In this document: positions 1,300-64,000 of the stretch, one piece after another
Layout of the letters: each line of letters opens with the position of its first letter
Numbering within the stretch: the stretch's first letter is position 1
Source: Candidatus Poribacteria bacterium
Lineage (GTDB): Bacteria > Poribacteria > WGA-4E > WGA-3G
Reading direction: 5' to 3'
Length of the DNA stretch: 64,000 nucleotides
NCBI GenBank assembly: GCA_963663765.2
Contig: CAXXUA010000005.1
Span: 1,632,001-1,696,000 of the forward strand
Notes under the pieces: model-generated
What the model was told of the DNA's origin: nothing
Seen by the model: the letters and a program-made list of their open reading frames with translations, nothing else
The model's database searches: none
Program-made: the position numbers and the translations under genes

Positions 1300-1680
1300 A
1301 CGAGTTGTGCTAAATAACTATATGTTGATCATTGTTTCACATAAGCATCACGTTTTGCAGGTGTCCTTCATAGTTTGAAACGATCTTCAGTCCCGCCAAA
1401 TGCCGTACGGGGAATGCCTTAATGGCATTCATACCGTTGATTTGGCGCATTTGGCGTTGATTTGGTAGGGACGATATGTTTATAGAAAAACGGCATAGCA
1501 CATCCTCTTTAGTCCCGTAGGGACGATATGTTTATAGAAAAACGTCATAGTACATCCTCTTTAGTCCCGACAAATGCCATACGCGCATTTGGCGTTGATT
1601 TGGTAGGGACGATATGTGTGCATTATAAACCTAATATATGTAAAAACTTTAAAAACAATGGGTTAACTGGCACAAGTCGT
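1300..1680 (+). mobile_element. MITE with ACGAGTTGTGC ends carrying GTCCCGTAGGGAC REP units
   Basis: acgagttgtgctaaataac ... gttaactggcacaagtcgt with AATATTA duplicated on both sides; near-identical copy starts at 63695. Confidence 0.75.
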
Positions 1681-1906: not shown

Positions 1907-2010
1907 GGGAATGCCTAAATGGCATTCATACCGGGGAATGCCAAAAGACATTCATACCCGGGGAATGCCAAAAGGCATTCATACCGTTGATTTCTTGATT
2001 TCTTGATTTC
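1907..2010 (+). repeat. Three nested copies of micro-element A (GGGAATGCC-loop-GGCATTCATACCGTTGATTT)
   Basis: Three hairpin heads followed by three TTGATTTC tails, inside a minus-strand REP (gagacccg|cactac). Confidence 0.8.
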
Positions 2011-2154: not shown

Positions 2155-2326
2155 TATAGTGAAATATACAATTAAGTTTACACCTCTTCTGTAGGCGGGG
2201 AATGCCAATAGGCATTCATACCGTTGATTTCGATCTCCGAATCGCGACTGAACGCCTTGATAGTCGGGAATCGGAGTTCCCTCCTACACCTGAAAGTGTA
2301 AAAATAATTCTAAAATCCACTATAAT
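2155..2326 (+). mobile_element. MITE with TATAGTG...CACTATA ends carrying an inverted REP pair
   Basis: Near-identical copies at ~22750-22956 (+) and ~63496-63692 (-). Confidence 0.75.
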
Positions 2327-20901: not shown

Positions 20902-21435
20902 TCATAAATATTTTAGCGACATACGTATGCAAGCAAGAAGTACAAAACCTAAATAATTTTCAGCGTAGTATTCCCATCGAACAACTAAACGCCGATAATC
21001 CTCTAACCAACTGAAAAATCTTTCTACTTTGAAACGACGCTTATACCGTCGTAAACGCCGACCATCCTGTGTAGCCTGTTTCGGACGATTCTTTTTATGA
21101 GGTGCTACCATTTCAATACCACGTTCCCTCAAAGAAGCATCTAAAGGATCGGAGTCATAAGCTTTGTCCCCAATCAACACTGCGGGGTTTTCGGATGTCC
21201 AACACGCATCCAATGCCGGTTCAACCAAGCGCACTTCATGACAAGAAGCCGTTGTAATCAGAACACTCACAGGTCTACCAGACTTTTCTGTAATCGCTAC
21301 CAGTTTTGTCCCTTTGCCGCACTTCGTTGGACCAACACAAGTGCCTCCTTTCTTGGCAGGAACGAATTTCGCATCAATACAACACTCACTCATATTTATA
21401 TTTTTTCGTTTTTCAAGCATTTCTGTGAGTGCCAA
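20902..21435 (-). pseudogene. IS5-family transposase, C-terminal DDE fragment only
   Basis: IDAKFVPAKKGG, GKGTKL, GDKAYDSD, RFKVERFFSWL..YRRL..RWE; N-terminal region absent. Confidence 0.85.
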
Positions 21436-21767
21436 ATGAGTCTATAGTGTTGATTTACCATTGCTCTGTGATATTGTTAGAATTACATAAATAAAAATAA
21501 CTTCAGGTTTTCGTTGAAGTATTTTTAATTATCATAGCGTCTAATTTGACGATAGAATCTGACAGAATAATTTATATGCACAATCTGGATGAATGTGCTA
21601 CAACTGACCACACAATCTGGATGAAGATTAATTTATTAATCGGGTAATAAATATTTTTCAGATGGTAGGCGGGGAATGCCTAAAGAAGCATGCGCGTATG
21701 GCATGCTCCATGATTCATACCGTTGATTTGGTGGTTTGTAAGCGCGCTCTTGGGACTTGATGTGCCA

Positions 21768-22294
21768 GCGCGCTTACAAAGCACGCCTGCAGTTGGGGGC
21801 GCGCTTACAAACCACGCCCGCAGTTGGGGGCGCGCTTACAAACCACGCCCGCAGTTGGGGGCGCGCTTACAAACCACGCCTGCAGTTGGGGGCGCGCTTA
21901 CAAAGCACGCCTGCAGTTGGGGGCGCGCTTACAAACCACGCCTGCAGTTGGGGGCGCGCTTACAAACCACATAGGTGTCAACTTAAGGATTTTACCTCTT
22001 GTGGGAGGGGTTTTCAACCCCGATTTTTTAGTGCATTTCCGCTCAAATCGGGGTTGAAAACCCCTCCCACAAGAGAAAATGCAAACAATATTTTCTTAAG
22101 TTGACACCTATGGGGGCGCGCTTACAAACCACGCCTGCAGTTGGGGGCGCGCTTACAAACCACGCCTGCAGTTGGGGGCGCGCTTACAAAGCACGCCTGC
22201 AGTTGGGGGCGCGCTTACAAACCACGCCTGCAGTTGGGGGCGCGCTTACAAACCACGCCTGCAGTTGGGGGCGCGCTTACAAACCACGCCTACC
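21768..22294 (-). repeat. 31-bp tandem array of a REP (about 12 units), interrupted by a MITE
   Basis: Unit gcagttgggggcgcgcttacaaaccacgcct at 21789, 21820, 21851...; last unit ends cgcctacc (GGTAGGCG on the minus strand). Confidence 0.9.
21971..22111. mobile_element. MITE with ATAGGTGTCAACTTAAG ends and an inverted REP pair inside
   Basis: ataggtgtcaacttaag ... cttaagttgacacctat; second copy at 22493-22631. Confidence 0.85.
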
Positions 22295-22631: not shown

Positions 22632-22995
22632 GGGGCGGGGTCTCCCCGCCCGAACAGAGGTTGGACGCAGGCGAGGAAACCTCGCACCTACGATGTCCAC
22701 AGTTCCCTAACGTCAAGCAAGCTTTGATAGAAACTTTAGATACTTCTTTTATAGTGAAATATACAATTAAGTTTACACTTTTTCTGAAGGAGGGGAATGC
22801 CAATAGGCATTCATACCGTTGATTTGGAGGAATGCCAATAGGCATTCATACCGTTAATTTCGATCTCCGAATCGCGACTGAACGCCTCAATAGTCGGGAA
22901 TCGGAGTTCCCTCCTACACCTGAAAGTGCAAAAATAATTCTAAAATCTACTATAATATCAGGGTTTCTACAAAAACTTTACACACCCCATGAAAA

Positions 22996-25294: not shown

Positions 25295-25781
25295 CCTGCA
25301 ATTTCAAAATCACTTTGAAAACTGTACCTTTGATGAATGTCCCATACACATTCATATCGTTGATTCAATACCCCGTACTGTTTAATATTATGGTGCGTAA
25401 AGTATTGACTATAGTTTGGGCATATTCCGTTTGTTGCAAGTCGGTTTTCAAAGGTGTTTCTATTTTCTACGAGTTACGCATATTCGAGAAACTGGAGAAA
25501 ATACCGCACTCCAATGGTAGGCGGGGAATGCCAAAAGGCATTCATACCCGACGAATGCCATAGGCGCATTCGGCGTTGATTTGGGGGAATGCCAAAAGGC
25601 ATTCATACCGTTGATTTTTTGATTTGGTGCTTTGAAAGCGCGCTGTTGGAACCCACATACCGCTCCAGCGGAGCGGAGTTGTCATTGACAATGTGCTATA
25701 GACAAATTGATAATAACTTAACAAGAAACAGATAGAAACTGTCCAAATTGCTACACTAATGCAACATTTAATTCTAAAAAT

Positions 25782-43241: not shown

Positions 43242-43992
43242 CAAGTTTATTCAGTTTTAAGAGCAGGACTTACGCACCCAACGGTAGGCGTGCTTTGTAA
43301 GCGCGCCGTTGCCAATAGGAGGGAAACCTTGAAATCCCGATTTTCTCACTCAAGGTAGGCGGGGAATGCCTAAACGGCATTCATACCGTTGATTTCTTGA
43401 TTTGATGCTTTGTAAGCGCGCCGTTGCTAATCCTGTGTTTATGACGCACATACAAAACACGCCTACCGGGATGGGGTATTTAGCACTTGGCTTTTTCTTA
43501 AGTTGACACCTATGGGGTCTCTGTGCCCCGCCGCAACTGATTAAATAAGAGATTGCGGAAACAGCACCCATAGGTGTTGTCAACATAAGGAAATATTGTT
43601 AATATCAACCCCATACTCTTCAGTCCCGTAGGGACGATATGTTTATAGATAACGAATACCCTCCCATGTCTTTAGTCCCGTAGGGACGATATGTTTATAG
43701 ATAACGAGTTCCCACCCCTTTTTAGTCCCGTAGGGACGATATGTTTATAGATAACGAATACCCTCCCCATGTCTTTAGTCCCGACAAATGCCATACGCGC
43801 ATTTGGCGTTGATTTGGTAGGGACGATATGTTTATTCTTCTATGCCGTTCCTACGGAACTCAAGAGGGGTAGATAACATATTTCTATAAACATATCGTCC
43901 CTACGGGACTAAAGACATGTACAAGATGGCAATACATAATATTAACGTTATAGTAAACACTCATCAAAAATACCTAAAACTAAATAACCCTG
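43242..43992 (+). mobile_element. Composite CAGGGTTATT-family MITE with GTCCCGTAGGGAC REP cluster and nested inserts
   Basis: 3' part nearly identical to the copies ending at 45964 and 56808; ends aaaactaaataaccctg. Confidence 0.7.
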
Positions 43993-45531: not shown

Positions 45532-45964
45532 CAGGGTTATTTAGTTTTAAAAGTTTTCTGTTATTGAGATGGACTGAAAGTTAATACCCAAATGAGGTCT
45601 TCTAACTGCACCTTACACGTCAATTTTAGATTATTGAAACATGAACATCGGTCTTTAGTCCCGACAAATGCCATACGGGGAATGCCTAAATGGCATTCAT
45701 ACCGTTGATTTGGCGCATTTGGCGTTGATTTGGTAGGGACGATATGTTTATAGATAACGAGTACCCTTCCCAGTTCTTCTTTAGTCCCGTAGGGACGATA
45801 TGTTTATTCTTCTATGCCGTTCCTACGGAACTCAAGAGGGGCAGATAACATTTTTCTATAAACATATCGTCCCTACGGGACTAAAGACATGGACAATATG
45901 GCAACACATAATATTAACGTTATAGTAAACATTCATCAAAAATACCTAAAACTGAATAACCCTG
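45532..45964 (+). mobile_element. CAGGGTTATT-family MITE with 9-bp target duplication
   Basis: gacgttgaa|cagggttatttagtttt ... aaaactgaataaccctg|gacgttgaa. Confidence 0.88.
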
Positions 45965-47960: not shown

Positions 47961-48117
47961 CAGGACTTACGCACCCAACGGTAGGCGCGCTTTGTAGGTG
48001 GGGAATGCCAAAAGGCATTCATACCGTTGATTTGGCGCTGGAAACCGAAAAAATGCTGAAAATTACACCATTTTCGTCATAATTCTTCATCAAATCATGA
48101 AAACTGCGTAAGTCCTG
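47961..48117. mobile_element. MITE with CAGGACTTACGCA ends
   Basis: aaggaa|caggacttacgca ... tgcgtaagtcctg|aaggaa; contains a REP interrupted by micro-element A. Confidence 0.85.
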
Positions 48118-56415: not shown

Positions 56416-56808
56416 CAGCGTTATTTAGTTTTAAAAGTTTTCTGTTATTGAGATTTACTGAAAGTTAATACCCAAATGAGGTCTCCTAACTGCACCTTAC
56501 ACATCAATTTTAGATTCTTGAAACATGAACATCGGTCTTTAGTCCCGACAAATGCCACACGCGCATTTGGCGTTGATTTGGTAGGGACGATATGTTTATA
56601 GAAAACGAATACCATCCACAGTTCTTTAGTCCCGTAGGGACGATATGTTTATTCTTCTATGTCGTTCCTACGGAACTCAATTGGGGTGGAAAACATTTTC
56701 TATAAACATATCGTCCCTACGGGACTAAAGACATGGACAATATGGCAACACATAATATTAACGTTATAGTAAACATTCATCAAAAATACCTAAAACTGAA
56801 TAACCCTG
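56416..56808 (+). mobile_element. Copy of the 45532 MITE
   Basis: Colinear and near-identical to 45532-45964, but lacks the micro-element A insert. Confidence 0.88.
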
Positions 56809-63495: not shown

Positions 63496-63692
63496 TTATA
63501 GTGGATTTTAGAATTATTTTTACACTTTCAGGTGTAGGAGGGAACTCCGATTCCCGACTATCAAGACGTTCAGTCGCGATTCGGAGATCGAAATCAACGG
63601 TATGAATCATAGCGAATGCCATACGCGCATTCGCCTATTGGCATTCCCCGCCTACAGAAAAAGTGTAAACTTAATTGTATATTTCACTATAT
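63496..63692 (-). mobile_element. Inverted copy of the TATAGTG MITE
   Basis: Reverse complement of 2155-2326 with an extra ~25-nt insert in element A. Confidence 0.8.
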
Positions 63693-63694
63693 TA

Positions 63695-64000
63695 ACGAGT
63701 TGTGCTAAATAACTATATGTTAATCATTGTATCACATAAGCATGACGTTTTGCAGGTGTCCTTCATAGGTTGAAACGATCTTCAGTCCCGTAGGGACGAT
63801 ATGTTTATAGAAAAACGGCATAGTACATCCTCTTTAGTCCCGTAGGGACGATATGTTTATAGAAATACGGCATAGTACATCCTCTTTAGTCCCGTAGGGA
63901 CGATATGTTTATAGAAAAACGGCATAGTACATCCTCTTTAGTCCCGTAGGGACGATATGTGTGCATTATAAACCTAAAATATGTAAAAACTTTGAAAACA
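63695..64000 (+). mobile_element. Copy of the ACGAGTTGTGC MITE, cut by the window edge, with uninterrupted REPs
   Basis: Colinear with 1300-1660; four intact agtcccgtagggacgatatg units. Confidence 0.85.

Follow-up and report, generated by a model that had tools for sequence, protein, structure and literature searches.

Hairpin-and-tail micro-elements inserted in extragenic palindromes of Candidatus Poribacteria and their possible mobilization in trans

How DNA units of fewer than 40 nucleotides (nt) come to lie, with exact ends, inside the hairpins of other repeats is the question raised by the 64,000-nt stretch analyzed here (hereafter, the window), which spans C5:1632001-1696000 of the Candidatus Poribacteria metagenome-assembled genome (MAG) G000 (6.35 Mb, 15 contigs, 97.8% complete). 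An earlier note on this DNA had described two kinds of hairpin element, A and B, which share a 3' tail and interrupt repetitive extragenic palindromic (REP) sequences, and had suggested that they are mobile. The stretch at 1396-1603 comprises three such units: a B element of 34 nt at 1570-1603, a second B at 1396-1465 and, nested in the latter, an A element of 36 nt at 1410-1445. On balance, we favor the view that they are micro-elements mobilized in trans, either now or very recently. Below, positions without a contig name refer to the window, contigs without a genome name to G000, and a slash within a host sequence to the insertion point.

Unit plan and insertion boundaries

A census of their anatomy bore out the description of the elements as discrete units of ~34-36 nt, each consisting of a hairpin and a common tail. 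From its 5' end, a unit begins with two bases, continues with a hairpin of 6-7 bp and a short linker (ATACC or GC), and closes with one to four octamers of the form (C/G)TTGATTT and, usually, a terminal GG; A elements are 33-36 nt long, B elements 34 nt, and a composite type, C, ~60 nt. For example, the A element at 1410..1445 (plus strand) reads GG, GAATGCC, the loop TTAAT, GGCATTC, ATACC, GTTGATTT, and GG. The motif CGTTGATTT occurs 16 times in the window (15 on the plus strand and 1 on the minus strand), against an expected 1.34, and 0 of 100 shuffles reached 16. The A hairpin, GAATGCC-N4-5-GGCATTC, was found 11 times (expectation 0), and the B core, with up to two mismatches, 6 times (expectation 0.14). 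Genome-wide, 412 A hairpins are followed by ATACC, of which 168+133 continue into GTTGATTT and 55 into another A hairpin; there are also 126 B elements, counted by their right halves, and 58 of these contain a nested A. The number of tail octamers per copy is one in 184 cases, two in 79, three in 15, and four in 4. The terminal GG is usual in G000 and is missing from the tails of the sister-genus copies examined.

When every perfect hairpin immediately 5' of GTTGATTT in G000 was sorted by stem, the linker ATACC was found with the A stem GAATGCC/GGCATTC (285+24 copies), with its variants GAATGCT/AGCATTC (19 copies) and GAATACC/GGTATTC (8 copies), and with the D stem GAATGC/GCATTC (44 copies). 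The linker GC accompanies B (CAAATGC/GCATTTG, 65 copies) and B' (CGAATGC/GCATTCG, 11 copies), and AC accompanies E (CAGAAGC/GCTTCTG, 14 copies); type C composites number 25 genome-wide. The tail C-GTTGATTT is common to A, B, B', C, D, and E, and we lean toward regarding all six as one superfamily of non-coding micro-insertion elements. Stem variants occur as complementary pairs (23 compensatory cells compared with a shuffle mean of 0.95), and variation among the A copies is concentrated in the loop (TAAAT 151, AAAA 129, TTAAT 58, and others), a pattern that shows the hairpin to be maintained. As single-stranded DNA, A is predicted to fold at -7.0 kcal/mol (z -3.22), and REP1 with B and A (1385-1475) into three nested coaxial hairpins at -20 kcal/mol (z -3.97); the prediction for B alone (1570..1603), -5.4 kcal/mol (z -1.05), is not significant. 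No Rfam family matches the elements, and no match to them was found in the plasmid collection searched. At two loci (C4:1121441 and C2:197317), A left arms form the tip of a perfect long palindrome made up of a host arm, GGGAATGC, a loop, GCATTCCC, and the inverted host arm, as if the hairpin had been copied back on itself.

To define the boundaries, 311 A copies were cut at every pair of left and right boundaries, and the resulting 11+11-nt junction was sought elsewhere in the genome. The register GGGAATGCC...TTGATTTGG recreates an existing junction for 148 of the 311 copies, the register shifted by one ambiguous G for 140, and the register that fits tail-less copies for 18, compared with 0-4 for off-diagonal registers; the same test set the boundaries of A at 1410..1445. 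Excision likewise restores an existing junction for 36/40 B elements with a nested A, 10-11 of 11 B' elements, 26/40 D elements, 7/14 E elements, and 16/25 type C composites. The proposal that removal restores the host therefore holds genome-wide, with register as a control, but fails for one of the three hosts originally quoted: GTCCCG/TAGGGAC and GTAGGCG/TGCTTTGTAAGC have 602 and 320 empty copies, respectively, whereas GTAGGCG/CGATCTCC has 0, the empty form of that host being GTAGGAG/CGATCTCC. The other insertion features first described, namely sharp ends, no target duplication, and a location inside hairpin repeats and inside one another, were all confirmed, with a single G as the only ambiguous nucleotide.

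Filled and empty near-identical paralogues had been said to coexist, and a paralogue search agreed. A distant, ungapped empty paralogue (150-nt flanks) was found for 180 of the 209 GG-ended A copies and 97 of the 99 B copies, and one at least 95% identical over at least 200 nt for 34/209 and 35/99, respectively; some of the A cases are array-versus-array matches, and where REP1 units are arrayed in tandem, a match may be shifted by one unit. The clearest example is a ~760-bp MITE (miniature inverted-repeat transposable element) with 13-bp terminal inverted repeats (CAATACCTTCGCC...GGCGAAGGTATTG), which is present at two unrelated loci, C5:~1789700-1790500(-) and C13:~75900-76650. Four substitutions separate the two copies, which have a single indel: an A of 36 nt that occupies the loop of the first of their two B elements. 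This pair records a recent gain or loss of A that was independent of its hosts. We conclude that A/B micro-elements have recently been gained or lost. The ~760-bp MITE itself is non-coding, carries REP1 units in addition to the two B elements, and looks recently active.

These patterns are not an artefact of assembly, a concern that had been raised with the original description, since dozens of MAGs that were assembled independently in several projects, from short or long reads, contain the element as well. Logan contigs end at every repeat; among them are joints that skip exactly B with its nested A (45661->45733), A (47996->48036), and B (56546->56581), although the shorter side of these joints is 22-29 nt and they may represent paralogues. 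In a search for orthologous empty sites, intergenic DNA between species was not alignable, and the flanks of the insertion at C5:500177 were not conserved in 39 congeners.

Target sites, hosts, and lineage distribution

The insertion sites follow a simple rule. CG forms the two bases to the left of the insertion in ~310 of 344 A-type copies, in agreement with the earlier statement that most junctions follow CG, and the commonest junctions of these copies are CG/TG (115) and CG/CG (109), i.e., mostly CG/YG. CG was also on the left in 15/15 copies examined in three other genomes, which belong to two genera and have unrelated hosts. The sites lie in the loops of B, REP1 (for B), REP4, and a unique hairpin (A at C5:500177), at the 5' foot of REP2 (GTAGGCG/TGCTT...), and in an arm of REP3. 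Orientation relative to the host is fixed, and the elements are strictly extragenic, with 0 real elements inside long open reading frames (ORFs).

As for the idea that several unrelated REP families are parasitized, it stood for A, which occurs in many contexts (41 flank classes in G000, of which 21 are singletons), but not for B, of which ~120 of the 126 copies are confined to one host, REP1, at GTCCCG/TAGGGACGATAT. Both flanks are unique in 19 of 634 tail modules, a few of which are chance matches. The A loops inside B are TTAAT (29), TAAAT (10), and AAAA (3), and those inside REP2 are TAAAT (52), AAAA (17), TAAAC (6), and TTAAT (6). By comparison, all 12 REP3-borne A copies have the loop AATA and the same ...CG flank variant (empty REP3 reads GGAG/CGATC), which fits a single insertion that spread with its host. 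We conclude that independent insertion and hitch-hiking with the host both occur. Filled REP2 doublets, in which we looked at strand-specific arm choice, number only 14.

The hosts are themselves organized into larger repeats. REP1 (GTCCCGTAGGGACGATATG...) forms 58-nt tandem arrays inside a ~330-bp MITE-like unit (1201-1620 and 63690-63960, and also C5:705800-706660), and in the 12-unit array at C5:705800-706660 empty (E) and B-filled (B) units follow one another in the order E B B B B B E B B E E B. A MITE of ~190 bp (TATAGTGAAATATACAATTAAGTTTACAC...), the core of which is the long REP3 hairpin, has three copies (2150-2330, 22750-22960, and 63500-63690(-)), all with an A- or C-type insert. 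REP2 arrays yield long spurious ORFs, such as repeat 'proteins' of 318 and 339 amino acids, that gene callers may annotate in Poribacteria MAGs, and tandem WD40-repeat genes are interleaved with elements in G000.

On re-reading the window sequence, all 14 copies listed previously were present at the base given for them. Two, at 21672 and 63591(-), turned out to be type C composites (~58-60 nt) rather than plain A, and those at 1907, 22793, and 25524 are multi-unit composites; unless noted, the copies described here are on the plus strand. The B element at 1396..1465, a variant (CCAAATGCCGTACG...CGCATTTGGCGTTGATTTGG), lies in REP1 at GTCCCG/TAGGGAC, and the A at 1410..1445 follows ...TACG in its loop. 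The B at 1570..1603, with an empty loop, lies between GTCCCG and TAGGGAC of REP1. The MITE copy at 63690..63960 (plus strand), a sibling of that at 1296-1620, serves as the empty reference: all four of its REP1 units read GTCCCG/TAGGGAC without B, and they include the empty counterpart of the REP1 that hosts the B at 1396-1465. At 1907..2009, the sequence reads as three tandem A hairpin modules of 26-27 nt each, followed by the octamer tail GTTGATTT CTTGATTT CTTGATTT; this array follows ...GAGACCCG at the 3' foot of a long inverted repeat, and the paralogous locus C5:1377873-1378270 has ~11 tandem A units in the same place. A strong, separate palindrome of another repeat family (CGTAGGGGTTGGGTTCCCCAACCC...) lies at 1740-1830 and recurs at the paralogous C5:1377700-1377800, with Rfam matches at chance level only.

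The A element at 2198..2230 (loop AATA, tail without GG) occupies the left arm of a REP3 hairpin, between GTAGGCG and CGATCTCCGAATCGCGAC. The 60-nt type C composite at 21672..21731 lies in REP2 between GGTAGGCG and TGGTTTGTAAGC and consists of an A left arm, an inner hairpin GCATGC-GCGTATG-GCATGC, and then ...ATGATTC-ATACC-GTTGATTT-GG; its GCGTATG loop is a B-like loop reversed. Two tandem A units at 22793..22860, the second with a degenerate tail (GTTAATTT), are inserted in REP3 after GAAGGAG. The composite at 25524..25627 lies in REP2 between GGTAGGCG and TGCTTTGAAAGC and contains an A hairpin module, a B' (CGAATGC/GCATTCG), a full A, and an extra octamer. In REP2 after AGGTAGGCG, the A at 43362..43404 has the loop TAAAC and two tail octamers; an empty REP2, with ACGGTAGGCG joined to TGCTTTGTAAGC, is found 80 nt upstream, at 43281. 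The B at 43784..43817 lies in REP1 next to an empty REP1 unit at ~43725. The REP1 at 45664..45733 holds a B with a nested A (45678-45713), and the REP1 at 56548..56581 a B with an empty loop; these two loci are paralogues of 87% identity. Both filled/empty sibling pairs named earlier, the MITEs at 1300 and 63695 and the paralogues at 45664 and 56548, were thus correct. The A at 48001..48035 (35 nt, loop AAAA), between GCTTTGTAGGTG and CGCTGGAAACC, is the sole copy in the window after TG, and its host class accounts for 37 of the 344 A-type copies genome-wide. Lastly, the type C composite at 63591..63648 is on the minus strand, inside the REP3 of a MITE copy. The long ORFs diverge at ~21000-21800: those at 107-21435 are all on the minus strand and those from 21757 onward almost all on the plus strand. 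The micro-elements do not switch there and remain on the plus strand.

The distribution of the A element was examined in 151 genomes of the phylum using an A-type 18-mer, for which a reversed-pattern control gave 0 matches everywhere. The 18-mer is present in 37/37 congeners (1-409 copies), in 27/57 genomes of the sister genus (mostly 1-2 copies, maximum 67), and as a single copy in 1/20 genomes of a third genus; none was found in the other 19 genera sampled. In a scan of one genome per species with an A 20-mer, all loci among the 80 matches listed were in Candidatus Poribacteria MAGs. Species that share 73-93% gene identity with G000 have A elements that match its own at 100% over 39-45 nt. 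The range of 1-409 copies among congeners indicates burst-like dynamics. In the sister genus, locus L154 (G139:C1:1241986-1245003) contains an E-like element (CAGAATGC/GCATTCTG, then AC-GTTGATT) whose loop holds an A after ...CCG, showing that nesting within the superfamily also occurs outside the genus of the window.

In G000, the elements have a strand bias on a chromosome-wide scale. C5 has 135 copies on the plus strand and 42 on the minus strand, and C6 has 33+/9- and then 3+/58-, with a switch at ~300 kb; the sign of the bias follows the weak GC skew in 5/5 regions. Element orientation on C5 is unrelated to genes (genes 590+/589-; 43 loci co-oriented versus 35 anti-oriented). G017, a closed genome, has its first 100 copies by position almost entirely on one strand (98 on the plus strand).

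Candidate mechanism and competing explanations

Any explanation has to accommodate what was observed above: how the units are built and bounded, the rule for their targets, the coexistence of empty and filled sites, and the lineages in which they occur. The maintained hairpin, the conserved 3' tail at a fixed distance, the absence of a duplication, the fixed orientation, and the hairpin targets point to a structure-specific reaction on single strands. In such a reaction, an enzyme would recognize the folded hairpin and tail on single-stranded DNA and would cut after ...SG both at the target and at the 3' end of the element; strand joining, by cut-and-paste or copy-and-paste, would be of the HUH type. 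The unit would then land after CG (mostly CG/YG) in the loop or foot of GTAG-type REPs, in MITE arms, in other micro-elements, or in a few unique hairpins. A G at both the target end and the element end is what one would expect if one hairpin guides both cuts. Later copies may be gained by hitch-hiking with the multiplying host repeat, and tails and hairpin modules may expand by slippage.

The earlier note had looked to HUH enzymes, among them REP-associated tyrosine transposases (RAYTs), as the agent and had suggested that the gene would be bounded by the same hairpin and tail. Its observation that the window itself encodes no candidate enzyme was correct, yet no gene so bounded (HUH/RAYT, IS110, or reverse transcriptase) was found in G000, and the attribution to HUH/RAYT enzymes found no support. 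There are 6 Y1 (HUH) loci in G000, of which four are copies of a 1.75-kb IS200/IS605-type element. An intact RAYT at C4:621598-622074 is preceded by four REP3 copies at 118-nt spacing (region C4:621100-622074). Another RAYT, at C10:24540-25277, is cut off by the contig end and lies behind nine REP2 copies, one with a D element, which is the only micro-element within 700 bp of the six Y1 loci. A RAYT remnant detected by tblastn at C5:1704440-1704700, 8.5 kb beyond the window, has a fourth REP family (GTAGGAGCGACCTCCCGGTCGCGACC) at its flanks and is cut short by a REP1 MITE. The Y1 profile was sensitive enough to detect the weak RAYT of G000 at E 4e-10. No enzyme was found among the genes beside the A arrays examined in G000. 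TTGAT, which had been read as an ISDra2-type target, lies in the 3' tail and not 5' of the insertion point. The CTTGAT of the tail also resembles rolling-circle nick motifs and IS91 target tetranucleotides; no such enzyme was found, and the idea was dropped.

Several results weigh against mobilization in trans. None of the 6 Y1 loci in G000 is bounded by A/B hairpins, and the end hairpins of the resident IS200/IS605 elements are unrelated to A/B. Y1 gene number does not correlate with element load, either in the family (Spearman -0.17, n=97) or in the genus (-0.15, n=38). A Pfam Y1 match at E<=0.001 is missing from four relatives that carry 31-107 copies, and 35 genomes with 0-1 element copies have at least three such matches. 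Y1-negative relatives that are at least 92% complete include G001 (95 copies, 97% complete), G010 (104 copies), and G024 (107 copies, one closed contig). The profiles for IS110 DEDD (PF01548), RVT_1 (PF00078), IS91 Y2 (PF04986), Rep_1 (PF01446), and Rep_trans (PF02486) gave 0 matches in G000, the blank for Rep_1 being weak because control genomes gave no signal either. The recurrent ORFs between elements encode WD40 proteins or an oxidoreductase or are spurious, and no nuclease-like ORF is among them. The target is a dinucleotide with context rather than the fixed 4-5-nt motif of HUH enzymes, and the junctions, CG/GG and GG/YG on either strand, are not the C/T at which, according to PMC3479197, the GTAG guide of the E. 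coli RAYT dictates cuts. The strand bias is an inconsistent signal, absent in the closed genomes G024, G022, and G021, and in G000 the empty host REPs carry the same bias as the elements. In addition, repeats flank 615 of the 634 tail modules on at least one side. If the elements are mobile, we consider a Y1 HUH transposase a doubtful agent and another, as yet unrecognized, enzyme a slightly better but still tentative candidate.

The main rival explanation, which we judge unlikely but worth serious attention, requires no dedicated enzyme: a few illegitimate seedings would have been followed by gene conversion or unequal recombination among REP/MITE paralogues and by replication slippage. With so many of the tail modules in repeated hosts, much of the filled/empty mosaic, including that within a single REP1 array, could be a product of paralogues recombining with one another. 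The confinement of ~120/126 B copies to one host, the REP3-borne A that looks like one event spread with its host (12/12), the slippage-like tandem arrays and octamer numbers, and the failure to find an enzyme in G000 fit the same account. It sits poorly, however, with the 41 unrelated flank classes and the 19 tail modules with unique flanks, where real elements end identically, and with boundaries that are exact to the base across non-homologous hosts. Nor does it account well for a CG rule that is the same in other genera with quite different hosts, or for elements that are identical where genes have diverged by 7-27%, as passive repeats would not stay identical. Furthermore, the ~760-bp MITE pair differs by the 36-nt unit, and no flanking variant was co-converted within 300 nt.

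It is also conceivable, though improbable, that the RAYTs serving the GTAG-tagged REPs mobilize A and B as by-products or parasites of their strand transfer at REP hairpins. The hosts are indeed GTAG-tagged REPs, most A copies lie 3 nt past GTAG (GTAGGCG), and the intact RAYT lies by four REP3 copies and the contig-end RAYT (C10) by nine REP2 copies, one with a D element; according to PMC3479197, TnpA-REP of E. coli cleaves DNA at either side of a REP and is capable of strand transfer in vitro. On the other hand, A and B have no GTAG, their junctions (CG/GG and GG/YG) differ from C/T, and three congeners that are at least 92% complete have ~100 copies each and no Pfam Y1 match at E<=0.001; moreover, the sister-genus hosts examined differ from the REP families of G000.

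We give still less credence to the modules being selected functional parts of a mosaic similar to bacterial interspersed mosaic elements (BIMEs), such as binding sites for host proteins or RNA-level signals, rather than selfish DNA. E. coli REP clusters bind gyrase and IHF, and the elements here are strictly extragenic (0 real elements in long ORFs), extremely conserved across species, and always associated with REP clusters. A function of this kind would nevertheless be hard to reconcile with 1-409 copies among congeners, with the 30/57 sister-genus genomes that have no copy, with an orientation unrelated to flanking genes (43 co- versus 35 anti-oriented loci on C5), and with the absence of any Rfam match, and it would leave the entry of units into new sites unexplained.

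Finally, that the elements are end-remnants of a larger insertion sequence (palindrome-associated transposable elements, PATEs, or footprints), or an assembly artefact, is hardly credible: the hairpin arms can be read as 7-8-bp terminal inverted repeats and 157 of 569 GGGAATGCC left arms have no nearby GGCATTC right arm, but among the 60 listed of these 157 orphans no long element bounded by the two arms was found, the element-like ones are type C/D, degenerate copies, or palindromized tips and the rest isolated chance matches, the resident IS200/IS605 ends are unrelated, and the element occurs in short-read and long-read MAGs from many projects.

Precedents and significance

Having set these alternatives beside mobilization in trans, which we continue to favor, we compared the elements with known systems. 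They resemble REPs, BIMEs, and REPINs in being short extragenic hairpins with hundreds of copies that are clustered, mosaic, and free of target duplication, and RAYT genes flanked by their own REPs do occur in G000. Unlike in REPs and REPINs, however, a GTAG or CGTC tag is missing from A and B (these start with (C)G/GG or AC before the stem, GTAG belonging to the host REPs), and A and B occur as singlets or direct tandem arrays, on one strand per cluster, not as inverted doublets. No RAYT is flanked by A/B, which are guests inside REPs with junctions other than C/T. With IS200/IS605 elements and their PATEs, they share a hairpin, the lack of a target-site duplication, a fixed orientation to an asymmetric target, and a strong strand bias in two genomes (G000 and G017). 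They differ from these in their size of ~35 nt, in having a single hairpin instead of distinct left and right ends, each with a subterminal hairpin, in being unrelated to the resident IS ends, and in a load that does not co-vary with TnpA. PATEs insert 3' of a fixed tetra- or pentanucleotide; here, only CG is constant on the left. IS1397-type insertion sequences are full-length and protein-coding, target REP palindromic units, and make target duplications; the elements described here share the specificity for REP palindromes but are 34-36 nt long and non-coding. MITEs of DDE transposons differ in that no target-site duplication beyond one ambiguous G is seen here. The elements do not fit the definitions of REPs/REPINs, IS200/IS605 derivatives, or MITEs: they have one hairpin only, and they lack GTAG, an associated RAYT, a resident parent element, a target duplication, and any co-occurrence with TnpA.

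The suggestion that they represent an undescribed mobile class was too strong, as the small dispersed repeats (SDRs) of Nostocaceae (Elhai 2008) are an earlier case of very small, nested hairpin repeats, to judge from the passages of PMC3116915, PMC5861425, PMC4390886, and PMC13756078 that deal with them. By description, SDRs would be the closest precedent, the same kind of thing in another phylum. Both are non-coding and far below MITE size, with some families being hairpins. Nesting is likewise common to both: units lie in one another, in MITEs, and next to short tandem repeats, here as A within B within REP1 within a MITE, together with octamer tails. In both cases, insertion is precise at a short G/C-rich site: in the relevant sections of PMC4390886 and PMC5861425, SDR5 inserts between bases 3 and 4 of GCGATCGC, i.e., after GCG, and here the CG rule applies. 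Complementary stem variants are a further likeness. SDRs are reportedly 21-27 nt long, and SDR4-6 are said to be hairpins with compensatory changes. The units described here are longer, at 33-36 nt, and have a hairpin-plus-octamer-tail build with GTAG-REP hairpins as preferred targets. SDRs are found only in Nostocaceae, according to a passage in PMC5861425, and SDR5 is 21 nt long, according to one in PMC13756078. The possibility that our elements are SDRs proper of a Nostoc-like cyanobacterium was rejected, as the host is a Candidatus Poribacteria and HIP1 is nearly absent (only 29 sites). Delihas 2011 and Kaasalainen 2015 contain nothing on SDRs, and no description of the present elements was found in the literature on Poribacteria repeats (REP, MITE, REPIN, or RAYT) that was covered, most subscription journals being outside that coverage. 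Our verdict is that the elements are of a known but barely studied kind, in a Poribacteria form. It is possible, though speculative and in our estimate rather improbable, that they belong together with the Nostoc SDRs to a wider class of sub-40-nt hairpin 'micro-transposons' that move without a recognizable transposase and originated in, or reached, at least two phyla; the mover would then be an uncharacterized structure-specific enzyme or housekeeping replication and repair proteins acting on extruded hairpins.

Ever since the description of SDRs in 2008, it has been a puzzle how DNA units of 20-40 bases insert themselves. In the portions of three SDR-citing papers that bear on this (PMC5861425, PMC4390886, and PMC13756078; 2015 to 2026), the function of SDRs is still called unknown, and PMC13756078 says the same of their mechanism. 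For sponge-symbiont MAGs, the elements have practical effects: intergenic regions become larger and more fragmented, each copy interrupts short-read assemblies, and long ORFs appear that are spurious. The Poribacteria family adds a second system, independent of the first, in which near-identical copies number in the hundreds, boundaries are exact, and a CG/YG rule applies in or beside hairpins. Empty and filled sites, closed genomes, and loads from 0 to ~400 among ~100 sequenced relatives make it useful for study, and the question of the enzyme becomes testable by phyletic profiling and oligonucleotide biochemistry.

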